A stretch of DNA of 64,000 nucleotides from an uncultured bacterium (GCA_963784355.1 CAWAQU010000009.1:32001-96000); one strand, 5' to 3'; numbered from the stretch's first letter, positions 714-39,801 are shown. The notes: generated from the letters alone by a model not told the origin. Program-made: numbers and translations.

Positions 714-3485
714 CTAACCCTTCAAAATACCTGCAGGCACTATGTCTGGACTGATTTTGAAAATAGTTGCAGCAGCTTCTTGGTCAATTTCTTCCAATAA
801 ATTCATAAATATGCTCATACCATCTTGCTTAAACTCTACCAAAGGGTCCTTTTGAGAATAACCCCTCAAGCGTACAGAATCCTGCAAATGATCAATAGTA
901 ACTAAATGCTCTGTCCAAAGTATGTCTATTGCTCTTAAGAACATAAATCTAGCTAAAGCAGACTGTACTCTGTCTTCGTAAATCTCCCATCTGGTTTTCA
1001 ATTGATAGTTTAGTTTTTCCGCTAAAATTTTAGCAACTTTAGAATACTTAAACTTATGATCTTTCAAAAGTACAGAAATTACCCCTGTATCAAAATCGGC
1101 TAAATTCAAAATGTTTTTCAATATATTGCTAGCTTCTTTTAATTGCTCTTGATTGATATTAGATTTTCTACCTGTTGGCTTTTTAACTATAGTTAAAGTA
1201 TTATAGACAGCATTGTAGATACTCTTTTCTATTTCTTTTTGCCATTCAAAACCTTCATTTAAGAGTACTTTTTTACGTCTGGAGTAAATCACACTTCTCT
1301 GTTTGTTAATTACGTCATCGTACTCAGTAACGTGCTTACGTACATCAAAGTTTTGTCCTTCAATTTTCTTTTGAGCTTCTTCTATCAAACCTGAAAGTAA
1401 TTTATTCTGAATTGGTTCATCATCAGGGATTGGTAAGATGTTCTTGTAGTAACTCATTCTATCACCTCCAAATACTCTCAAAACATAGTCTTCAAGTGAG
1501 ATATAAAACTGACTCATACCCGGATCTCCTTGACGTCCACTACGACCTCTCAACTGATTATCAATACGTCTACTCTCGTGTCTTTCAGTACCAATTACAA
1601 ATAAACCTCCTAAATTTTTGACTTCTTCATGGAGTTTTTTCCACTCTTCTTTTTTTGTTTCATCATCAGGAATTTCTCCACCTAATTTAATATCCACACC
1701 ACGACCCGCAATATTAGTTGCCAAAGTCACACTCCCCTTTTTACCGGCTTCAGAAACAATTTTTGCTTCCTGCTCGTGATTTTTAGCATTTAAAACTTGG
1801 TGTGGGACACCTGCTTCTTTTAATTGTTTGCTCAGCTCCAAATTTTTATCAATAGATGTAGTACCAATCAAAATCGGCTGCCCGGTTTCATGTATAGCTT
1901 TTATATCTCTTACAATGGCTTGGAATTTCCCCGCTTCAGTTTTAAAAATTTTATCTACATAGTCTTTTCTGACCATTACCTTATTTGTAGGAATAGTAAC
2001 TACTAAAAGCTTATAGATTTTAAACAATTCCTCAGCCTCAGTAGCAGCCGTACCTGTCATACCTGACAATTTATTATATAGTCTAAAGTAGTTTTGGAAT
2101 GTAACTGTAGCCACTGTCTTGCTCTCGGGTTGAACTTTCAGCCCTTCTTTGGCCTCCAATGATTGGTGTAGACCTTGATTGTATCTTCTACCAAACATCA
2201 ATCTACCTGTAAATTCATCTACAATGACTATTTCTCCATCCCTAACTACATATTCTTTTTCTCTATGAAACAAGGCCCAAGCTTTCAAGGCTTGATCTAA
2301 ATGGTGGATTAAAACAACATTTTCAGACGATCCGTAAAGTGATTTTATACCCAACATTCTCTCTACTTTTTCAATACCAAATTCACTTAAAGTTACAGTT
2401 TTGCGTTTTTCATCTACCTTGTAATCAACTTCAGGATTCAACTTTTTAACCAACTCGGCAAACTGTTTATACCTAGCAGAAGAGTCTGCATCTTGAGAGG
2501 AAATAATCAACGGAGTTCTAGCTTCATCAATCAAAATAGAGTCAACCTCGTCTACAACGGCTACTGTCTGACCGGCTTTTTGGACAATTTCCTCAGGAGT
2601 GTTAGCCATGTTATCTCTTAGATAGTCAAAACCGAATTCGGAATTTACCCCATAAACAATGTCTACAGGTTGATTAGCTTCTTCGTCCCAGTAGGCTCTC
2701 TTCCTATCACAATGAACCAAATTTTCAACATCCAAAACCGCCCTACTGTCATCCAAACTACCATCTTCGTACGTATCTACCAGTCCGGCATTTCTTTTTT
2801 TATCTTCAACAGATCCCGCTTGAGCGCCCAATTTAAAATAAAAGCTTGCTTGATTCTGAATAATTCCAACAGTCAGTCCCAAAAAATCATAAATTTTACC
2901 CATCCAACTAGCATCACGCCTCGCCAAATAGTCGTTTACAGTAACTAAGTGTACTTGGTTGTTTTCAGGAAGGGCATTTAAATATACAGCTAAAGTAGCT
3001 ACCAAAGTTTTTCCCTCTCCTGTTCTCATTTCAGCTACGCGGCCATCATTTAATACCATACCACCAATCAACTGAACCGGGAAATGTTTTTGCCCTATAG
3101 TTCTCCAAGCAGCTTCCCTAACTACAGCAAAAGCTTCGGGTAGAAGTTCGAGCAATTTTTTCTCCATTTCTTTTTCCTTCAAGCCTTTCAATTTTTCTCT
3201 AAATTCAAATGTTTTAGCTTTAAGCTCACTATCTGAGAGACCTTGCATTTTTGCATCAAAATCCTCAATTTTTTTAACTACGGCTAAGTATTTATTGATT
3301 TCTTTTTTTTCACCAATTAAATTGTCCAGAAATTTTTTAAATTGACTTCTGTCTTTTACAACAGTTCTTTGCTTGGTTGTGGTACTTTTAGCTTTAGTCT
3401 GAGGATTATTATCTGCAGGCACATTAATGTTTGTAGTTTCTGTCTCTTTTACAGCTACATCATTATTTGGATTAGAAGAACTCAT
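714..3485 (-). CDS. secA: Preprotein translocase ATPase SecA
   Basis: MRTGEGKTL, VTVNDYLARRD, VDEVDSILIDEARTPLIIS and GTERHESRRIDNQLRGRSGRQGDPG motifs; no C-terminal Zn-binding motif. Confidence 0.99.
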   Translation of the reverse strand: MSSSNPNNDVAVKETETTNINVPADNNPQTKAKSTTTKQRTVVKDRSQFKKFLDNLIGEKKEINKYLAVVKKIEDFDAKMQGLSDSELKAKTFEFREKLKGLKEKEMEKKLLELLPEAFAVVREAAWRTIGQKHFPVQLIGGMVLNDGRVAEMRTGEGKTLVATLAVYLNALPENNQVHLVTVNDYLARRDASWMGKIYDFLGLTVGIIQNQASFYFKLGAQAGSVEDKKRNAGLVDTYEDGSLDDSRAVLDVENLVHCDRKRAYWDEEANQPVDIVYGVNSEFGFDYLRDNMANTPEEIVQKAGQTVAVVDEVDSILIDEARTPLIISSQDADSSARYKQFAELVKKLNPEVDYKVDEKRKTVTLSEFGIEKVERMLGIKSLYGSSENVVLIHHLDQALKAWALFHREKEYVVRDGEIVIVDEFTGRLMFGRRYNQGLHQSLEAKEGLKVQPESKTVATVTFQNYFRLYNKLSGMTGTAATEAEELFKIYKLLVVTIPTNKVMVRKDYVDKIFKTEAGKFQAIVRDIKAIHETGQPILIGTTSIDKNLELSKQLKEAGVPHQVLNAKNHEQEAKIVSEAGKKGSVTLATNIAGRGVDIKLGGEIPDDETKKEEWKKLHEEVKNLGGLFVIGTERHESRRIDNQLRGRSGRQGDPGMSQFYISLEDYVLRVFGGDRMSYYKNILPIPDDEPIQNKLLSGLIEEAQKKIEGQNFDVRKHVTEYDDVINKQRSVIYSRRKKVLLNEGFEWQKEIEKSIYNAVYNTLTIVKKPTGRKSNINQEQLKEASNILKNILNLADFDTGVISVLLKDHKFKYSKVAKILAEKLNYQLKTRWEIYEDRVQSALARFMFLRAIDILWTEHLVTIDHLQDSVRLRGYSQKDPLVEFKQDGMSIFMNLLEEIDQEAAATIFKISPDIVPAGILKG

Positions 3486-3616
3486 AATTGTTGTGATTTG
3501 TAGTTAAAAATAAGTTGTTTAATAGGGTTTGTCAAGTTACAAACTTAAGTGTAATAGCCTGGTGGCTCATGAATTACTTGTTTGACATAAAATCAGCTAA
3601 AATACAAAATACAACT

Positions 3617-4528
3617 GTGATTTTAATTAGTTTGTTAGGACAAACATGCAGTGGCAAATCCGAAATGGCAGTAGAAATAGCTAGGTGGCTGGGTAATTGC
3701 TGCATAATCAACTGTGACTCTAGGCAAATCTACCAAAAATTAAATATTGGTACTGGCAAAATCAAAGGTAGTTGGAAAGATAACAATTATTTTTACAAGA
3801 CTATCCCTCATCTTCTAATTGATTACGTCGATCCCCAAGAAAAAAATTATTCACTTGCTAATTATATTAACGATTTTAAAAACTTGCAAACTAATATAGA
3901 AAGTCAATTCAAATACGCAATTTTGACAGGAGGTACAGGTTTATACGCTAAGGCCATTACTGACAACTACCAAATTAGCTCTGTAAAGCCTGAATATGAA
4001 AAAGATTGGCAAGATTTAAGAAAAGAATTATCCAAAGATTCAATTTCAACTTTGCAACAAAAATATCTAACTTTAAACTTAAGCCCTTTAAATCATTCCG
4101 ATTTTCACAATCCCAGACGATTAATCAGCAAACTCTTGGATTTTGAGGGAAAAAGTAAAGGTTGGTACGAAACTATTCAAAATGAATTTAAATTTGATAA
4201 AAGCCTCAATTTTGCAATTCAAGTGGACCAGACTGAGTTAAAACAAAAAATTTTAATTAGGTTGAAAGATAGAGTAACTGAGGGCCTTACTGAGGAAATA
4301 GAGAGTTTAAATTATTTGGGTACTCAAAGATTACTTGATTTAGGTCTAGAATACCGCATCTCCCAACTTTACTTGTTAGGATTTCTAACCGAAGATGAAT
4401 GGATCAACAAAATGTATCTGGAAAATTGTAAATATGCCAAAAGACAGCTTACTTGGCTACAAAAACAAGATTTTACTTGGATCAGTAATACAGAAGAGAC
4501 AAAAAGAAGGATTACTTCCGCAATTTAA
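3617..4528 (+). CDS. miaA: tRNA dimethylallyltransferase
   Basis: GQTCSGKS P-loop, DSRQIY, GGTGLY, YAKRQLTW. Start moved to GTG 3617, just downstream of TTGACA at 3582 (the track starts at 3515). Confidence 0.92.
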   Translation: MILISLLGQTCSGKSEMAVEIARWLGNCCIINCDSRQIYQKLNIGTGKIKGSWKDNNYFYKTIPHLLIDYVDPQEKNYSLANYINDFKNLQTNIESQFKYAILTGGTGLYAKAITDNYQISSVKPEYEKDWQDLRKELSKDSISTLQQKYLTLNLSPLNHSDFHNPRRLISKLLDFEGKSKGWYETIQNEFKFDKSLNFAIQVDQTELKQKILIRLKDRVTEGLTEEIESLNYLGTQRLLDLGLEYRISQLYLLGFLTEDEWINKMYLENCKYAKRQLTWLQKQDFTWISNTEETKRRITSAI

Positions 4529-4530
4529 AT

Positions 4531-4974
4531 CTACACTTTGCAAAGTGGTTCAAAACCGAATTGGCTGTTTACTTGTACATTTTCTTGTTTAATTGTACTT
4601 CCAAAAAAACACATCTGCCATCTTTGAATATTATTAAACTCCTGTTTCTTTTTCTCAGGAATATAATTCGGGTTTTGGTTATCAACAGTTTCTAATAAAG
4701 AAGTATCCAATACCTCCTCACCTTTTTTCTTGTAATTTATCTCTTTAGCATACTTTTCTTGGTACAAAGCACTGTTGTAGTAATCCTTTTCGTTTTTAGA
4801 CTCATTATTTTCTTGAATCAGTTTTTGAAAGACTAAAGACTCTGCATTAGCTTGAGCTTGAATACGATATAAGTTGTAAATATTGTATATGTTAGCTAAA
4901 AAACCGCCCACTAGTAATAAGTGAACGGTAAATTTTACACTGGGTATTTGAAAAAAACGTTGTAGTGAATTCAT
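4531..4974 (-). CDS. FtsB/DivIC-like septum formation membrane protein
   Basis: One N-terminal TM helix, a coiled coil, and EKYAKEINYKKKGEEV resembling the FtsB E..AR..LG..KPGE motif. Confidence 0.5.
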   Translation of the reverse strand: MNSLQRFFQIPSVKFTVHLLLVGGFLANIYNIYNLYRIQAQANAESLVFQKLIQENNESKNEKDYYNSALYQEKYAKEINYKKKGEEVLDTSLLETVDNQNPNYIPEKKKQEFNNIQRWQMCFFGSTIKQENVQVNSQFGFEPLCKV

Positions 4975-5000
4975 TCAAAATCAAAAATTATTGGATATGA

Positions 5001-5441
5001 CTAACCAAACAAACCTGTAATATTTGTACTAGTTAGACCACTAATAAAGTTAACAATTGTATATGCAATGATTGTGATAATTAAACCGTATAAAGCATTG
5101 AAAAGTATTTTCTTTCCTTTTTTTGATCTAGCTTCATCACCATTATCAACAATGATAAGGAAACCTCCATATACTAAGAATAGTACTGCTACTGCTCCAG
5201 CTATATAAGTAAGGAATTTGGCAATGTTAAGAATAAAACTGGCTATACTGCCTCGACCTCCAATAAAACTTGAACCCTCTGTTGCACCCGTAACAGGACA
5301 GCTTCCACCACATAGCTCGGTTACACCTGGAATTTTTACTTCTGTTGCACTCACTGAAGGAGCTACAACTAAACTAAAAGCAAATATTGCAATTAATGAA
5401 AATGAAAATAGTTTTGTAAGTATGTTTGCAAATGCTGACAT
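5001..5441 (-). CDS. VirB2/TrbC-like (CPR-type) pilin, copy 1
   Basis: Signal peptide ending VSA, Cys-pair loop, two hydrophobic helices separated by the charged loop DNGDEARSKKGKK, then LYGLIITIIAYTIVNFI. Confidence 0.8.
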   Translation of the reverse strand: MSAFANILTKLFSFSLIAIFAFSLVVAPSVSATEVKIPGVTELCGGSCPVTGATEGSSFIGGRGSIASFILNIAKFLTYIAGAVAVLFLVYGGFLIIVDNGDEARSKKGKKILFNALYGLIITIIAYTIVNFISGLTSTNITGLFG

Positions 5442-6123
5442 AAGAATAAGATATTGTTGTTTTTTGTAACTTGTTTTTGTTAGTTAAATAAAAGTATAAC
5501 TTAGATTATTTATTTGTGCAAGTGGAAGATTTTACTTAAGCTGTTCTTAGTTGCATTTTACTCAGATGTCCCTCCAAACAAACCTGTAATATTTGTACTA
5601 GTTAGACCACTAATAAAGTTAACAATTGTATATGCAATGATTGTGATAATTAAACCGTATAAAGCATTGAAAAGTATTTTCTTTCCTTTTTTTGATCTAG
5701 CTTCATCACCATTATCAACAATGATAAGGAAACCTCCATATACTAAGAATAGTACTGCTACTGCTCCAGCTATATAAGTAAGGAATTTGGCAATGTTAAG
5801 GATGAAGGTAGCTATATTGTTTTGACTTCCGTTAGTCCCTAGAAATTGCGATCCGGTTGCTGAACCCGTAACAGGACAATTACTACCACATAATTCTGAA
5901 CGTGAAGGTAGTGACACTGTGCCATTTGCGGCAGTGGAACTAGCAGCACTCACTGAAGGAGCTACAACTAAACTAAAAGCAAATATTGCAATTAATGAAA
6001 ATGAAAATAGTTTTGTAAGTATGTTTGCAAATGCTGACATAAGAATAAGATATTGTTGTTTTTTGTAACTTGTTTTTGTTAGTTAAATAAAAGTATAACT
6101 TAGATTATTTATTTGTGCAAGTG
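5005..6123. repeat. Tandem duplication of pilin gene plus upstream region
   Basis: 5005-5231 matches 5574-5800 (227 bp) and 5347-5524 matches 5946-6123 (178 bp), identical by eye; the intervening segments differ. Confidence 0.93.
5558..6040 (-). CDS. VirB2/TrbC-like (CPR-type) pilin, copy 2
   Basis: Same architecture as 5001-5441, with identical signal peptide and TM region and a different mature N-terminus. Confidence 0.8.
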   Translation of the reverse strand: MSAFANILTKLFSFSLIAIFAFSLVVAPSVSAASSTAANGTVSLPSRSELCGSNCPVTGSATGSQFLGTNGSQNNIATFILNIAKFLTYIAGAVAVLFLVYGGFLIIVDNGDEARSKKGKKILFNALYGLIITIIAYTIVNFISGLTSTNITGLFGGTSE

Positions 6124-6166
6124 TGGTATATTTTTTATGTTTGTGTCAAGTGAAGTTTTCCCCATT

Positions 6167-7375
6167 TTAGCTGCTTTTATAGTAATTTAATATCCCTGAA
6201 AGACCTATCATTACGGCATTATCACCGGTCAAGCTAAGATTAGGAATAAAAATATTTTTGAGTCTGTTTTTTACTTTTAGCTCTTCAATTTTTTGTCTAA
6301 GTAACAGATCAGCAGATACGCCACCGGAAAGACCTATTGTAATAGGTTTGTATTTTTTTATCCCCAGTTCAAATTTGTTGATAAGTTGCTTGGTTACAAC
6401 AGTTCTGGCAGATACACACACGTTATAAATAAAGTCTAATTTTTGGTTTTTTTCAGAAGGATCCAGATTTCTGTAATTCATTAGTTTTTTTATTTCGTCA
6501 GGACCCAACTGTTTCTCAAAAGCAAAATTTGGAATTTTTTGATCCTGGATATGATATCTCACAGCAGTTTTTAATCCTGAAAAAGAATAGTTTAGATCTG
6601 CACTTTGCTTCATCCCTACCGGAAAATTGCAATAATTACCTTCAAATAAACCTGATATTTTTGCTACATGCATACCACCTGGATATGGCAAGCCCAGCAT
6701 ACGACCTACTTTATCCAAACACTCCCCGGCTGCATCATCTAAGGTTTTACCTACTATTTGCCAACTATTCCAGGAATTTAGAAGGATTATTTGTGAATTT
6801 CCACCGGAGACTAAAAGATGTAGATGAGGAAATACTTCTGATTTTATTTCAATTTCGGGATTGTAAAAGCTACTTGCCACATGCCCTTTCAAATGATTTA
6901 TCGAGCATACCTCTATTGCTTTATTTTGTCTTTCTCCTATATAAAAACTCATACTTTTAGCAAATTCCATACCTACCCTAAGGGCAGAAATTAGTCCGGG
7001 CTCAGTTGTGACAAATATTTTATCGACTTGAGACAGTAAATCTAGGTCTTCAGCATCAAGCGTAATGGAGTCAAATGATAAATTTTCATCCAAGTTATGT
7101 TTTAAGTTTGAAACTGTGTTGTTTTTAATACTTTCCTTGACCTCCTGAAGTAGCATTTTTAATAAAAAGTGGATTTGCTCAGCATGTTTTCTAGCTCCAA
7201 TTTCAGGGATTACACCCCCATATTCAGCGTGAATCTTGATTTGAGAAGAAACAATACTACCTAAAACTTTAAATGAATTTAAATATGCATAAAAATCTAA
7301 ATTAGCATTCAAATCCCCTTCTACAACAGCTAAGGAAGTCTCGTCACAACTGGTCTCAATACTCAGGTAAAGCAT
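6167..7375 (-). CDS. tsaD: tRNA N6-threonylcarbamoyltransferase TsaD
   Basis: IETSCDET, YGGVIPE, NHLKGH, LLVSGG, TLDDAAGE, SFSGLKTA, DNAVMIG. Confidence 0.97.
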   Translation of the reverse strand: MLYLSIETSCDETSLAVVEGDLNANLDFYAYLNSFKVLGSIVSSQIKIHAEYGGVIPEIGARKHAEQIHFLLKMLLQEVKESIKNNTVSNLKHNLDENLSFDSITLDAEDLDLLSQVDKIFVTTEPGLISALRVGMEFAKSMSFYIGERQNKAIEVCSINHLKGHVASSFYNPEIEIKSEVFPHLHLLVSGGNSQIILLNSWNSWQIVGKTLDDAAGECLDKVGRMLGLPYPGGMHVAKISGLFEGNYCNFPVGMKQSADLNYSFSGLKTAVRYHIQDQKIPNFAFEKQLGPDEIKKLMNYRNLDPSEKNQKLDFIYNVCVSARTVVTKQLINKFELGIKKYKPITIGLSGGVSADLLLRQKIEELKVKNRLKNIFIPNLSLTGDNAVMIGLSGILNYYKSS

Positions 7376-7380
7376 ATAAT

Positions 7381-8964
7381 TTAGTTTATTTTAGTTTCCT
7401 CAGGACTTTTTGTTATTCTTTTTTTAGCTGATTCAAGCTGCCAAAACGGTACCCACTGCCTTTTGCTTAGCTCCTTGTCAGTTATAGGTATATAGTAAGT
7501 AAGTGGACTGAAAAATAGAAATGTAGCAAATACTATGAAGCAAGTACCGCTTAAAACTCCGTACAAATAAATTCTGACTTTAGGTATTTCAAGGTATGTT
7601 TTCATTGTATATTGGAAAATTAAAGCAGCCAAAATGTAACTAAGCGTAAGAGGAATTAAATAGTGATAGAGATACATTGCCCTAGGGATTAAAAACATGA
7701 TAATCATGTAAAATAAATACAATGCCAAAAATAATTTAATTTTTTCAAATAGCTTTTGGTCAGTAATTTTTAACCCAAACACGTGTTTGCTTAAAATCAA
7801 GACAATACTCAACAACATTCCTAAAAGCCCGATCAGCCAAGACACTGGATTACCTTGCAAATAAATATATCTTGCACTTTCACTATTGTATTCATAAGCA
7901 TATATTACACTTCTAGCACCAATTGGCCAAGTAATCGGGAAACTTGGGTCGGAAAGAGTCTGATAATTAGAGGGATTCAAGCTTTCTACATTTATATGGT
8001 GCTTAAAAATATAGAGTATGTTGATTGCGTAGAATTTTAAGACTCCACGTGCAGTTAAATTTTCTTGACCTTCCAAAGAATTTTTATAGTTTGTGTTATT
8101 TATATATTTTGCGTAAGTATCTCCATGTATCTCTTTTCCAAGCAATCCGTGAAGGCCATAAATTAAAGCAGTTGATAGAATAATTGCCGAAATAAAAACA
8201 ATTGCTTTCGATACAAAACCCTTAAAGTATTTGGGTTGATTTATTTTTTTTATAAAATTTTCTTGATTCAGATGACTTAAGTTTTTATCTTTTAAGTAAA
8301 TTAATACAAAACAAAGTACTAGAAATAAACCATTTACCTTAACTAAAATCGGTAGAGAAACAAGCAAGCCTAAAATAAAATATTCCTTAAATGATACAAA
8401 GTTTAATTGTGGCTTTCCAGAAGATAGGCTATCCCACAATTTCATAAAGTAAATTAGAGCTAAAAATATAAAAAACAACTGGGTACTTTGCAATAGTGCG
8501 GCTCTTGTATCTACAATTATAGCATTGTCAAATAAATAGACTAGTGAAAAAAAGAAGGCCAGGGTATTATTTTGTAGTAAAATACATAAAAGCCAGAAAA
8601 AGAGTGTAGCAGCCAAAATACCAAAGATTATAGGAAAAAATCTGGCTCCGGTGTAATTGTAAGTACCGGGAATATTCTCTACACTATATTCAGTTGTTAA
8701 AAATTCTTCTGGAATGTTGGTATTTCCGTTGAAAATCTTTTCCCCTAAAGCTATGAATAATTTACCAAGTGGTGGATGATCTTGTAAAAAAGCAACTCCA
8801 TGGACATATTTTTGAGCAGCCGGAATAAAATAAGCCTCATCCCAGATGCTTTTATTGGGTTGGTTATAATTTGGAAAGTACACACATACAGCCATTAAAA
8901 GTACCGCAAGCGTGTACAAAAACAAACTGTTTTCCACTAAGTATTTTTTAATAGAAGCTAGCAT
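7381..8964 (-). CDS. Protein O-mannosyltransferase-like GT-C (PMT/GT39) membrane glycosyltransferase
   Basis: Polytopic protein with WDEAYF (DE motif), DHPPLGKL, GNP, and YLYHYLIPL, typical of the PMT and PMT_4TMC domains. Confidence 0.8.
   Translation of the reverse strand: MLASIKKYLVENSLFLYTLAVLLMAVCVYFPNYNQPNKSIWDEAYFIPAAQKYVHGVAFLQDHPPLGKLFIALGEKIFNGNTNIPEEFLTTEYSVENIPGTYNYTGARFFPIIFGILAATLFFWLLCILLQNNTLAFFFSLVYLFDNAIIVDTRAALLQSTQLFFIFLALIYFMKLWDSLSSGKPQLNFVSFKEYFILGLLVSLPILVKVNGLFLVLCFVLIYLKDKNLSHLNQENFIKKINQPKYFKGFVSKAIVFISAIILSTALIYGLHGLLGKEIHGDTYAKYINNTNYKNSLEGQENLTARGVLKFYAINILYIFKHHINVESLNPSNYQTLSDPSFPITWPIGARSVIYAYEYNSESARYIYLQGNPVSWLIGLLGMLLSIVLILSKHVFGLKITDQKLFEKIKLFLALYLFYMIIMFLIPRAMYLYHYLIPLTLSYILAALIFQYTMKTYLEIPKVRIYLYGVLSGTCFIVFATFLFFSPLTYYIPITDKELSKRQWVPFWQLESAKKRITKSPEETKIN
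7776..7789. repeat. Palindrome CAAACACGTGTTTG (copy 1, inside the PMT gene)
   Basis: Perfect 14-bp palindrome; the same 12-bp core occurs at 29374, 40732 and 45640. Confidence 0.75.
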
Positions 8965-8986: not shown

Positions 8987-9071
8987 TTTATTAGTAATCA
9001 GAATATCTGGTTGCTTGCAACGGGGTTAAGTTTTTGTTTCCACAGCTTTGGTGCTCTGATACAAGCTCATT
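8987..9071 (-). repeat. Dispersed ~90-bp non-coding repeat, copy A
   Basis: Minus strand AATGAGCTTGTATCAGAGCACCAAAGCTGTGGAAACAAAAACTTAACCCCGTTGCAAGCAACCAGATATTCTGATTACTAATAAA aligns with 44792-44887 and partly with 28160-28227. Confidence 0.8.
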
Positions 9072-9984
9072 ATGAGATTTTAGTATTTGCCCATTTTTCA
9101 GCTACAAGGGAAATTGGTCTGAGTGAATCAATTTTATGAATTGTATCTTCACTGTTAATTACAGTTAAAAGTCTTTCAAAACCCATACCTGTATCAATAT
9201 TTTTCTTGGTTAGTGGTTCTAGATTAATCGGTTCATGATTTTCTCCCCACTCTCCTTGAAATTCCATAAAAACATGATTCCAAATCTCTACAATTTCTTG
9301 ATCTATAAAGTTTTCAATTTCTACCTTAGCCATATTTGGGAATAAACTTGTTTCAAAATCTATTGAGTTATGGTTTAAAAGGTAGTAAATTTCGCTACAC
9401 GGCCCACATGGCCCTCTGTAAGGAAGCCCCCACCAATTATCTTTACCACTCTTTTTTGTGATTCTATAAATATATTTATCGTTTTGCTCAGTGTTATTTT
9501 TGAAGTCGTATTCTTCTCCAACTGTAGCTTCAATACCTACTTTGGCAAATTCTTCAGTCCAAAATTCAACAGCTTCTTTATCTTCGCCAGCCTCTGTAGA
9601 GCCTTTATAAACAGTCACAAATAATCTTTTCGGATCCAAGCCAAGCCATTCTTTGGAAGTTAAAAATTCAAAACCCCAGCTAATAGAATCTTTTTTAAAA
9701 TAATCTCCAAGACTCCAACTTCCAAGCATCTCAAATAAAGATAAATGTCTATTATCACCCACTTCTTCAATATCTAGAGTACGAATACATTTTTGCGAAT
9801 CGGCTAGCCTGACACCGTCCGGATGTTTTTCTCCCATCAAATAAGGTACAAGCGGATACATTCCGGAATTCACAAACAATAGAGTCGGATCCTCTTTTGG
9901 CAATATACTTGCAGATGGTAGAATAGCGTGGCCCTTAGAAGCCATAAAATCAAGGAAAAGTTGTCTAAGCTGTTTTGAGTCCAT
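9070..9984 (-). CDS. alaS: Alanyl-tRNA synthetase, catalytic domain only (split or truncated AlaRS)
   Basis: DPTLLFVNSGM, SQKCIR, HLSLFEMLG, GPCGPCSEI, EIWNHVFME, DTGMGFERL; stops about 33 residues after motif 3. Start is 9984 or 9996. Confidence 0.88.
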   Translation of the reverse strand: MDSKQLRQLFLDFMASKGHAILPSASILPKEDPTLLFVNSGMYPLVPYLMGEKHPDGVRLADSQKCIRTLDIEEVGDNRHLSLFEMLGSWSLGDYFKKDSISWGFEFLTSKEWLGLDPKRLFVTVYKGSTEAGEDKEAVEFWTEEFAKVGIEATVGEEYDFKNNTEQNDKYIYRITKKSGKDNWWGLPYRGPCGPCSEIYYLLNHNSIDFETSLFPNMAKVEIENFIDQEIVEIWNHVFMEFQGEWGENHEPINLEPLTKKNIDTGMGFERLLTVINSEDTIHKIDSLRPISLVAEKWANTKIS

Positions 9985-10153
9985 ATATAAACTCATTTTT
10001 GAAATATTTATTTAAAACTGGCAAGTACAGAATCACTAAGACCAATTTTTTTGTTTGCAATATAGTTGTATGAAAATAAAGTCTTGACAAATATTAGATT
10101 CTACAATATTAATCAGTATTAACGGTTTACAATATTTATTAGTTAATGTTTGC

Positions 10154-37113: not shown

Positions 37114-39801
37114 CTAAAATAGTAACTTTGCTCTATCTCTTATTTCTCTTTCTACTTCTTCTCTATTTTTACCATATCTTTGTTTACTATTTTCAATAAT
37201 CCTTTTCTTTTTAGCTTCAGCTTCCTTCATATCAATTTTAAAGAAGTCATCAAATTCAGCATTGATATTGAATGGAGTAGTCCTTTGGCCATCTACAAGT
37301 AAAATCGCATTGTATGTACGTGCCTCCGGATTAGCAATATCTTGAACTGTTAGTGGATTAAACTCCTTTTCCAAATAAGTAGCATCATCTGCACTACAGC
37401 GATAAATAAATTTAGATGCGCAGTTTGCCATAATAGAGTCTTTAATACGCTCATCACCTTGCACAACAACCTGTTTGATAAACTGGTGAGCTAGGTAAAA
37501 CCCTACTTTATATTTACGAATTTCCTCCAGAGCTTTTGGAATAGCATCAAATAAAAAGTTTTGCATCTCATCAATATATACAAAAAATGGAGTTCTTTCC
37601 TGTGGTGTTATTTCTGTAGTTGTACCGTCTAAATTATATTTTAAACCATCACTTCGGCCCATTCCGGCCATTAAAAGGCCTCCTAAAATAACCATACCTA
37701 CCAAATAGGCTGAATTTTCACCGATCAAACCTTTGGCTAAAGAAACTAAAATTATTTTCTTGTTATCCATTGCTTCACGCCAATTGATTGCTGATTTTTG
37801 TTGACCTATCATGGGTTTCAAAAAGTCATTAGTTACAAAAGGGGCCAATTTTGAAGTGATATAAGGTACCATATTTTCCAGACTAGCCTCTCCACCAGCT
37901 TTAGTAGCTTCCTTTTCCCAAAAGTCAATTACTTCTGGCTCATCACACATGGCTAATTTAAAACTTCTAAAATCTTCATCTGCTAAAACTTTGGAGATTT
38001 CCATTAAGGTGCTTCCACTTTCCGGATGGCTCATGACCAAGCGCATGGAGTTTTTCATGTAATTCTCAAACATCGGACCTCCTGTTTTCTTCAAATCATA
38101 TAACTTATCCCAAATCGTAAACAGAGTATCAATTACCAAGGTTTTTTGCGTCGGCTTTAATGGATCACTTTCAAGCATGTTCAAACCAAGTGGCATGTCT
38201 GTAATTGCCGGTGAAAACAAAACTACATCATCCATTCGATGCTCAGGAATACGTCGCAAAATGTCATCTACACCTTCTCCATGAGGATCTACAAAACAGA
38301 TTCCATTACCCATTTCTATGTCTTGTAGCATCACATTCATCATTTCTACAGTTTTACCCGAACCTGAACCACCTAATGAGTAAATATGTCTATAACGATC
38401 CTCCATTTTCATGTAACAGTCTTTACTTTGACCCCTACTTACAGCCCTACCTATATATACGCTGCCCTCAGAAGGACCTGGAACTTCCAGCGGGATGGCA
38501 GGTTTGCGGGCCAAAAGCCATTTAATATTTGGAGTTTGAGTTAGATAATTGGGCAAATGCCAGATCGAATTTACTTCTTCTGTATTCAAAATTTGACTTG
38601 CATCTAAGTTTTGAGTTCTCAGCAAAAAGTTAAGTACTGATTCTTTTACATCACCTTTAGCTTTTTTAAATCCGTTAAAGGGTTTGGTGTCATAAATCTG
38701 AAATGCGGGTACGACACCGTCTACAATTTGTTTTGCTCTTGCCTCAGTAGCTCCACTACCTACAATTCTCAAAGTAAAGTAGAATCCGGGTTTACTAGCT
38801 TTCTCTTCCAATTTTTTAATAATTTCTTGCTGCTGGGGAGTGAGTTGAATATTTTGTTTTTTTCCACTCAAATCTAAATTTTGCTCCCTATCTTTAAGTT
38901 GATTTTTGTTTTCGTCATCTTTTTTTTCTTTGAGAAATAGCTTAAAAAAACCACCAATAAATTTGAATGCCGCTTTCATGAAATCAAATTCAGGGAAAAG
39001 CACATCTTTAGGATTAAATCCTTGATTGATTTTTAGAGCTAGATTTCTAGGTTTCTTTTGCCACCAATCTTCGACAGGAGTTATAACTAACTGTATTCCT
39101 ACTGATTCTTCCTTTGATAATCCTCCCATAGCATTGGTAATACTGTTTAAAGGGTCACCATCAGCTAATTTATATGTTTTAAAGGGCAATTCATATCTCA
39201 AGTTTAATTTCAACTCCTGACAATATGCTACTGTATTTTCTTTAAAAAAGTTTAAATTGGTTATTCTAACAAGGTGGGCTTTATTATAAATAGCAACGAT
39301 TTGTTTTTCCATTACTTCAGCCATGCTTTTATTACATACAAGCCAAAACCTTATCTCCTGATCAATATTTACGATTTCTAAACTAAATCTGGTACCTCCA
39401 TATAGCCAAGTTTCCCTTTTCTTCTTAGCATACTCTGTCATGATACCATAAAGCTGTTCCCCCATTGAAAGCGCTTCTTTATCATCTTTTTTACTATTAT
39501 TTTCTTTCTGGGATTGCTCTGCAGTTTCTTTTGGCACGCTGATTTGGATAATTACAGTCTCTTCCCAATCTTTTATCCTTTTCTTTTCATAAGTTTTTTT
39601 CCTAAAGTATTTAATACCATACCAAATACCTCCAGCCAATAAACCGGCAAATACTAGAAACAACAAAAAGCCTATAAAAAACCCATCTAATCCTACTCCC
39701 GAAGAACTTTGCTGGCTGCTAGAAACTTCAGTAGTGGAGCTAAATGTAGCTGTAGGCCTAGAGTTGTTTGTATTCTGTTGAAAAAGATCATTATCTTCCA
39801 T
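37114..39801 (-). CDS. Membrane-anchored TraD/VirD4/HerA-like ATPase (type IV coupling-protein-like)
   Basis: N-terminal TM helix, Walker A GGSGSGKT, FVDPHG, Walker B YIDEMQNF, RKYKVGFYLAHQ. Confidence 0.85.
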   Translation of the reverse strand: MEDNDLFQQNTNNSRPTATFSSTTEVSSSQQSSSGVGLDGFFIGFLLFLVFAGLLAGGIWYGIKYFRKKTYEKKRIKDWEETVIIQISVPKETAEQSQKENNSKKDDKEALSMGEQLYGIMTEYAKKKRETWLYGGTRFSLEIVNIDQEIRFWLVCNKSMAEVMEKQIVAIYNKAHLVRITNLNFFKENTVAYCQELKLNLRYELPFKTYKLADGDPLNSITNAMGGLSKEESVGIQLVITPVEDWWQKKPRNLALKINQGFNPKDVLFPEFDFMKAAFKFIGGFFKLFLKEKKDDENKNQLKDREQNLDLSGKKQNIQLTPQQQEIIKKLEEKASKPGFYFTLRIVGSGATEARAKQIVDGVVPAFQIYDTKPFNGFKKAKGDVKESVLNFLLRTQNLDASQILNTEEVNSIWHLPNYLTQTPNIKWLLARKPAIPLEVPGPSEGSVYIGRAVSRGQSKDCYMKMEDRYRHIYSLGGSGSGKTVEMMNVMLQDIEMGNGICFVDPHGEGVDDILRRIPEHRMDDVVLFSPAITDMPLGLNMLESDPLKPTQKTLVIDTLFTIWDKLYDLKKTGGPMFENYMKNSMRLVMSHPESGSTLMEISKVLADEDFRSFKLAMCDEPEVIDFWEKEATKAGGEASLENMVPYITSKLAPFVTNDFLKPMIGQQKSAINWREAMDNKKIILVSLAKGLIGENSAYLVGMVILGGLLMAGMGRSDGLKYNLDGTTTEITPQERTPFFVYIDEMQNFLFDAIPKALEEIRKYKVGFYLAHQFIKQVVVQGDERIKDSIMANCASKFIYRCSADDATYLEKEFNPLTVQDIANPEARTYNAILLVDGQRTTPFNINAEFDDFFKIDMKEAEAKKKRIIENSKQRYGKNREEVEREIRDRAKLLF

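Follow-up and report, generated by a model that had tools for sequence, protein, structure and literature searches.

How two neighbouring genes can be identical over two long tracts and strongly different in the segment between them is the question raised by a pair of pilin genes in an uncultured bacterium. The pair lies on the minus strand of a 64,000-nucleotide stretch of DNA (the window); coordinates are counted from its first letter unless a contig or locus is named. The two genes, A and B, and the features discussed below are as follows.

5001–5441, minus strand: pilin gene A, an open reading frame of 146 aa matching PF18895 (E 3.5e-11, 43.4 bits), with the architecture of B and a shorter variable part
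5558–6040, minus strand: pilin gene B, an open reading frame of 160 aa matching PF18895 (E 2.6e-12, 47.1 bits)
5005–5231, minus strand: 227-bp tract, copy in A, exactly equal to 5574–5800; encodes the hairpin (two helices and a basic loop) and reaches the last codon of A
5574–5800, minus strand: 227-bp tract, copy in B, at an offset of 569
5347–5524, minus strand: 178-bp tract, copy at A, exactly equal to 5946–6123, at an offset of 599
5946–6123, minus strand: 178-bp tract, copy at B, from the exact-run scan
5232–5346, minus strand: variable segment of A, 115 bp, encoding the mature N-terminus around Cys-x4-Cys; GC3 7/39
5801–5945, minus strand: variable segment of B, 145 bp; compared with A it has two insertions, of 7 and 3 codons; Ser/Thr/Asn/Gly-rich; GC3 13/49
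5280–5314, minus strand: short stretch of the variable part with raised identity (83% to 5858–5892), spanning the Cys motif
5493–5520, minus strand: promoter-like site of A, TGCACA-16-TATACT, inside the 178-bp identical tract; 9/12 matches
6092–6119, minus strand: promoter-like site of B, TGCACA-16-TATACT, the same site as that of A, inside the other copy of the 178-bp tract
5525–5573, minus strand: junction between the copies, containing the last 4 codons and the stop of B followed by a spacer; a degraded homologue of 6124–6172

With a curated cut-off of 26.6 bits for PF18895 (T4SS_pilin), A and B are, by profile match, VirB2-like pilins. Both are full length, and each has a start codon, a signal peptide and the same promoter-like site. 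B consists of the signal peptide, the variable mature N-terminus, a two-helix hydrophobic hairpin whose helices are joined by a short basic loop, and a 4-residue extra C-terminal tail. An AlphaFold2 model of B, computed with a 19-sequence alignment as input (mean pLDDT 63), predicts helices at residues 2–37 (the signal peptide), 72–107 and 113–155. The latter two form a long-helix hairpin with a pLDDT of 73–83, and the pLDDT lies below 50 at residues 30–44 and 56–71, which make up most of the variable part (residues 32–80). No rows at E<=0.001 were returned when the model was compared with the PDB using Foldseek; the best row, the Aeropyrum pernix conjugation pilus 8dfu, was weak (E 0.61, prob 0.96, TM-target 0.66), and a profile search of PDB sequences gave only rhodopsin and transmembrane-helix noise. 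The pair of cysteines four residues apart, located right after the signal peptide, is invariant in 19 of 19 aligned family members.

The promoter scan as a whole was not enriched over shuffled sequence (7 sites found, shuffle mean 9.0). No terminators were found between B and A, and the one terminator-like site, at 4929–4903, lies within the next open reading frame and is at chance level. An Rfam search of positions 4400–6400 at E<=1 gave a single row, SCARNA7, which at 15.6 bits (gathering score 65) is no better than chance, and the RNA fold of the leader and junction exhibited no stable structure (z = 0.93). Reading of TGA as a sense codon was considered and rejected: two long open stretches were separated by TGA twice, compared with 28 times by TAA and 14 times by TAG. 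Of the long frames, 34/529 end in TGA.

The exact-run scan found zero differences between the copies of either tract. The extents given by the earlier note, 227 bp and 178 bp including ~83 bp upstream of the gene, proved to be right. Of the 178-bp tract, 95 nt are coding (signal-peptide codons 1–31 and two further bases), and the other 83 nt precede the ATG. Overall, A and B are 83–88% identical. In a codon-threaded alignment, 51 of the 521 ungapped sites differ, 50 of them within the 115 aligned sites of the middle and one in the final codon, and ten indel codons come on top of these substitutions. When the 51 differences were placed at random, none of 20,000 placements yielded a run of 227 or 178 (longest run, 118). 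The middle, described in the same note as different in sequence and length, is indeed so (115 versus 145 bp, with 50/115 aligned sites differing), but the accompanying statement that it keeps only ELCG..CPVTG is wrong, because A and B agree at 22 of the 39 residues aligned there. Cys-x4-Cys-PVTG is the best-kept piece of the variable part, with variation on both sides of the motif. The patch spanning this motif contains seven consecutive conserved residues with identical codons, among 22 conserved-residue codons (P about 0.009), and shares the rare codon ACG, which accounts for 5% of Thr codons; it could be a third small exchange, or it could be due to chance. The only phase-variable tract seen was a T7/A7 run in the loop-coding part of each copy.

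The two kinds of segment differ sharply in apparent age. Nei–Gojobori counts over the 39 aligned codons of the variable part showed that 22.2 of 30.8 synonymous and 27.8 of 86.2 non-synonymous sites differ, giving a dS of about 2.4 (saturated, pS 0.72) and a dN/dS of about 0.18. In the tracts, by comparison, no difference occurs at the 75.0 synonymous sites (52.3 in the 227-bp tract and 22.7 in the 178-bp tract), the 237 non-synonymous sites or the 83 upstream non-coding sites. The middle is thus old and under purifying selection, and the tracts are young. These counts bear out the suggestion that a recent duplication alone would not be sufficient to produce the pattern. They do not bear out the view that the middle is diversifying, since its dN/dS and saturated dS look like old divergence under purifying selection. 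The tracts are identical at synonymous and non-coding sites alike and are embedded in much older homologous divergence, which is the signature of concerted evolution.

The edge of the 227-bp tract allows selection and recombination to be distinguished. The last five codons on the variable side of position 5231/5232 encode I-A-(S/T)-F-I in both copies, and three of the four codons for the same residue differ synonymously, whereas the next 73 codons contain no differences. Synonymous differences that continue right up to 5231/5232 mean that selection at the protein level is not what sets the boundary, which, on this codon evidence, is a recombination breakpoint rather than a selection edge. Comparison with syntenic orthologues gives a similar contrast. 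There, no part is less conserved than the signal peptide (22–33% identity), yet A and B match in it at 31 of 31 residues; the hairpin, 32–60% identical in the orthologues, matches at 70 of 70 residues in the pair. Each variable part has the other as its closest relative (56% identity versus 22–46% to 7 orthologues), and GC3 is native-like in both (7/39 and 13/49, with 13/75 and 3/31 in the tracts).

Additional evidence comes from the junction between the copies. The 49 nt at 5525–5573 match 6124–6172 at 24 positions, in the same register as the 178-bp tract (null mean 13.5, P about 0.0013); this residual upstream homology is based on just these 49 nt. Downstream of the 227-bp tract and the stop codon of A, the similarity is 10/30 and not significant. 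The 227-bp tract stops in the last sense codon of A, and B runs four codons further into the junction, of which the assembly contains no other copy. Degraded homology in register upstream and none downstream fits what an old tandem duplication would be predicted to leave behind.

The pair sits between tsaD (6167–7375) and a DivIC-like gene (4531–4974), with miaA and secA past DivIC and a PMT-type glycosyltransferase and an alaS fragment past tsaD. It does not lie in a T4SS gene cluster: its neighbours are housekeeping genes, and virB4 is on another contig. Among 29 loci of relatives, taken with 1.5-kb flanks, tsaD adjoins a pilin in six, and four of these six have a DivIC-like gene on the opposite side. 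At the tsaD site, one pilin is present in G001 (same genus), G004, G012, G019 and G002, and three are present in G007. The tsaD–pilin–DivIC synteny, with mostly single pilins, indicates a conserved chromosomal pilin site rather than a mobile T4SS cluster and a lineage-specific duplication. The PF18895 family is multi-copy and often tandem, with matches in 57 of the 61 genomes searched, the studied genome (G000) included. Self-comparison of 20 tandem pilin loci from 19 relatives revealed DNA repeats in 12, all in the hairpin region, and none in 8; these loci contain no repeats of at least 100 nt above 84% identity, and homogenisation is therefore not a general habit of pilin arrays. A homologue search of 5.8 billion proteins gave 11 matches at E<=1e-10, two of which are A and B; the next best is 51% identical, and the nearest named homologue, also at 51%, is from 'Candidatus Gracilibacteria bacterium'. 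No related loci were found among the metagenome contigs and genome contigs scanned.

Several other features of this neighbourhood were observed. In three related loci (L011:1966–2382, L013:520–1381 and L014:296–1369), the gap between the pilin and DivIC holds other small open reading frames with signal-peptide-like N-termini and no tblastn match to the pilins. A 308-aa open reading frame at 9070–9996 (minus strand) matches just positions 2–257 of 552 in the alanyl-tRNA synthetase core profile PF01411, and 105 bp separate its end from the next gene. This short form also adjoins tsaD in the genome of the same genus (L059:4019–4924; 68% identity over 302 aa), and it may be a split or truncated alaS conserved in the group. 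The PMT-type protein O-mannosyltransferase at 7381–8964 (minus strand) is two genes away from the pilins, and O-glycosylation of the exposed Ser/Thr/Asn-rich segment of B by this putative enzyme is conceivable as a candidate idea.

Taken together, these observations argue that A and B are probably old tandem paralogues that were later homogenised in two tracts by gene conversion, with the middle spared. A single ancestral gene at the tsaD–pilin–DivIC site would have been duplicated in tandem, giving units of about 5005–5573 and 5574–6172, and an end of the duplication at the stop codon of A would have provided B with its new 4-residue tail. The copies would then have diverged, and the upstream-most 49 nt of the unit would have decayed. 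Very recent RecA-type non-reciprocal recombination between the direct repeats, that is, gene conversion, would have produced the two identical tracts, one carrying the promoter-like site, 5′ leader and signal peptide and the other the membrane hairpin, presumed to be the filament core. The 115/145-bp middle would have escaped conversion, being unpaired because it is too diverged (57% identity and two indels), and selection for two distinct surfaces may have added to this. The direction and number of the events are what we infer, and it counts against this reading that two tracts around an unconverted middle call for a second event or, with a single one, for later restoration of the middle. The predicted outcome is two pilin isoforms with common expression signals, export and processing and a common polymerisation core but different exposed N-terminal surfaces. 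The two genes may be co-expressed, and the variable part may be exposed at the surface and play a role in partner or host recognition. The host-range or phage-evasion role put forward in the earlier note is likewise a candidate. The earlier note had likewise proposed gene conversion as the process that homogenises the constant parts, and the zero differences in the tracts, the saturated middle and the 24/49 upstream extension make this the best reading. The machinery for homologous recombination is present, with a RecA match of 413 bits at C9:75395–76162.

A different use of the same tracts was also considered, in which they are kept as recombination arms that make the exposed N-terminal pilin module exchangeable. 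We regard this as rather unlikely. If it were true, cells with A only would arise when a crossover in the 178-bp tract removes B, and cells with only B, now carrying the C-terminal end of A, when the crossover falls in the 227-bp tract; unequal exchange or uptake of neighbour DNA could add or swap modules. A population could then toggle between one- and two-pilin states or trade surface modules, which would give an episymbiotic bacterium with a small genome a simple, recombinase-free way to vary its surface.

Four other explanations for the pattern were weighed against gene conversion between old duplicates. The same constant–variable–constant picture, with sharp breakpoints, would be yielded by a recent whole-gene tandem duplication in which one middle was then replaced by DNA originating in a diverged strain or species, taken up for instance by natural transformation, with the tracts serving as arms for homologous recombination, and the presence of RecA makes such homologous recombination possible. 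However, this history predicts a junction that is either identical or unrelated to 6124–6172, and the observed match is 24/49 in register. In addition, a donor with a middle at a dS of about 2 would have had diverged arms, the hairpin DNA of relatives being no more than 84% identical; both middles are native-like in GC3 and mutually nearest; and neither the 5.8 billion proteins (best 51%) nor the contig scans provided a donor candidate. We consider such an import unlikely. An assembly artefact, in which strain alleles or a collapsed repeat were stitched together as a tandem, or similar blocks were equalised by polishing or graph simplification, is quite unlikely. The bin shows contig redundancy, with 87 repeat pairs at >=90% and near-duplicates between C7 and C10 (96.7% over 9.8 kb), C8 and C10 (99.4% over 5.8 kb) and C2 and C4 (99.5% over 5.2 kb), and repeats of 227 and 178 bp exceed the usual k-mers, so that their perfect identity can be exaggerated by graph collapse or polishing. 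A tandem nevertheless needs a real junction, and 5525–5573 is unique in the assembly, is unlike the sequence downstream of A and gives B an intact frame with its own stop, which a simple two-allele bubble cannot make. Collapse would affect only blocks that were near-identical beforehand and would leave their contrast with the saturated middle in place. The assembly could, in a more limited way, have mis-assigned the order of the two variable segments between the copies. The near-duplicate stretches, to which an inverted 6.4-kb self-match at the start of C3 can be added, represent either strain redundancy or large repeated elements.

Programmed antigenic variation, in which silent cassettes or a template repeat feed an expression locus as in pilE/pilS or in a diversity-generating retroelement (DGR), would suit a constant–variable–constant layout in a surface filament subunit, and cassette exchange of the pilE/pilS kind had been put forward for this locus on the basis of that layout. 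It is very improbable here. A blastn search (word size 7) of the 1,138,885-bp, 81%-complete assembly for additional copies of the constant blocks, or of either variable segment, found none; there are thus no silent cassettes within the 81% present, and, given this completeness, cassettes could lie elsewhere. No reverse transcriptase was found in the genome (no RVT_1 match), no G4 motif (regular expression for four G3+ runs, both strands) was found at 3000–8000, and no relevant inverted repeats flank the locus. With no further copy, no reverse transcriptase, no G4 motif and two complete genes that share a promoter-like site, the pilE/pilS analogy is left unsupported. A DGR in particular is contradicted by the lack of an RVT_1 match in the assembly together with the differences between A and B, which are of all types, include indels and are not adenine-specific. 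A recent duplication with very fast diversifying selection or local hypermutation limited to the exposed segment would agree with the frequent action of such selection on exposed pilin segments. This is contradicted by the pS of 0.72 and dN/dS of about 0.18 in the middle and by synonymous differences in unchanged-residue codons right up to the breakpoint, and we regard it as extremely improbable.

The assembly spans 1.14 Mb in 13 contigs at 33% GC. A VirB4-like ATPase is encoded by a 739-aa open reading frame on C12 (PF19044, PF12846, PF03135), located among housekeeping genes, and TraG-D_C-type ATPase domains occur at four places in the genome. One is in an 895-aa frame in the window at about 37339–38430 (G000:C9:69339–70430, minus strand), 32 kb from the pilins, with weak T4SS-DNA_transf/TraG-D_C matches typical of a coupling-protein-like ATPase; three further TraG-D_C matches are on C13, C7 and C3. 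No PF04610 match corresponding to TrbL/VirB6 was found in the genome. More PF18895 genes are present on C11 and C7. Judged from these matches, the gene set fits the T4SS-like system of Patescibacteria as described in the available part of PMC12102498.

Other repeated or unusual sequences in the assembly were noted. A 529-aa open reading frame on C7 (G000:C7:21962–23551, L062:6962–8551, plus strand) contains five consecutive PF18895 hairpin domains (E 2.6e-35 over 5 stretches; TrbC in 3 stretches), one N-terminal signal-like segment and a Thr/Pro-rich tail. Its predicted domain layout is that of a 'poly-pilin', with the units fused in one gene instead of arrayed as separate ones, and a weak single pilin open reading frame (L062:6456–6962) lies directly before it. 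Giant open reading frames at G000:C5:11998–16350 (1450 aa) and C10:10998–14489 (1163 aa) contain 100%-identical internal repeats of 592 and 433 bp; these tandem repeats were considered as paralogue pairs and rejected, because they are internal to the giant frames. The GC content of C13 is 38.5%, compared with about 33% elsewhere.

The nearest described setting for such genes is the pilin arrays of Patescibacteria, a group in which VirB2-like arrays are widespread. The available part of PMC12102498 reports that 383 assemblies hold 441 VirB2 arrays of 2–11 genes, whose members share on average 25%, and never more than 54%, amino-acid identity within an array, and suggests adaptation to different host strains. 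A and B resemble these arrays in belonging to PF18895, in their tandem arrangement, in the presence of a VirB4-like ATPase in the genome and in coming from a family that is often multi-copy. They differ from the arrays as described there in their 83–88% overall identity, in their two tracts of 100% DNA identity and in their position among housekeeping genes away from the virB4 contig. The term 'gene conversion' is absent from the available text of PMC12102498, and a literature search for gene conversion with pilin and CPR found nothing. For the array evolution of Patescibacteria VirB2-like pilins, whose members as reported in that part of PMC12102498 are all highly diverged, the pair indicates that intrachromosomal recombination can act on VirB2-like array genes. 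In a cultivated Saccharibacterium, according to the available part of PMC10633639, the predicted pilins of the T4SS cluster are essential.

VirB2 paralogues of Anaplasma phagocytophilum and A. marginale offer a second comparison. As described in the available part of PMC3556328, they share a signal peptide and two hydrophobic helices, vary mainly in a hypervariable region before the N-terminal cysteine and near the C-terminus, and have been proposed to form an antigenically variable surface organelle. There are 8–15 such paralogues beside virB4 in an intracellular pathogen, compared with only two genes here, in a small-genome bacterium that is free-living or episymbiotic, and the DNA-identical constant tracts that A and B share as neighbours have no described counterpart in that part of PMC3556328.

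The pair marks the signal peptide and hairpin as interchangeable parts and the residues flanking the invariant Cys pair as the distinct part, which is likely to be an exposed specificity segment; it thereby provides a natural two-isoform test case. It represents clean, fairly ordinary concerted evolution rather than cassette switching, a known process that is undescribed in this pilin family, and because the mechanism is a textbook one, its value is local rather than general. In Neisseria, pilE/pilS encode the pilin of the type IV pilus, with one expressed gene, a G4-forming element and numerous silent partial copies that lack promoters. Like pilE/pilS, A and B encode a filament subunit that is constant in some parts and variable in others, and the proposed mechanism is again non-reciprocal recombination, but they encode a T4SS pilin, and neither silent copies in the 81%-complete assembly nor a G4 element at 3000–8000 were found. 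Campylobacter flaA/flaB, Salmonella fliC/fljB and Helicobacter babA/babB are duplicated genes for filaments or adhesins that are conserved at their ends and divergent between them; both paralogues are complete and expressible and gene conversion keeps the parts required for polymerisation, export or anchoring near-identical. No switching device, such as an invertase or a phase-variable tract, was seen at A/B. The pair differs from these three systems in its protein family and organism and in a homogenised tract that includes the promoter-like site and leader, and it resembles them in consisting of two complete paralogues with homogenised core parts and a differing exposed middle.
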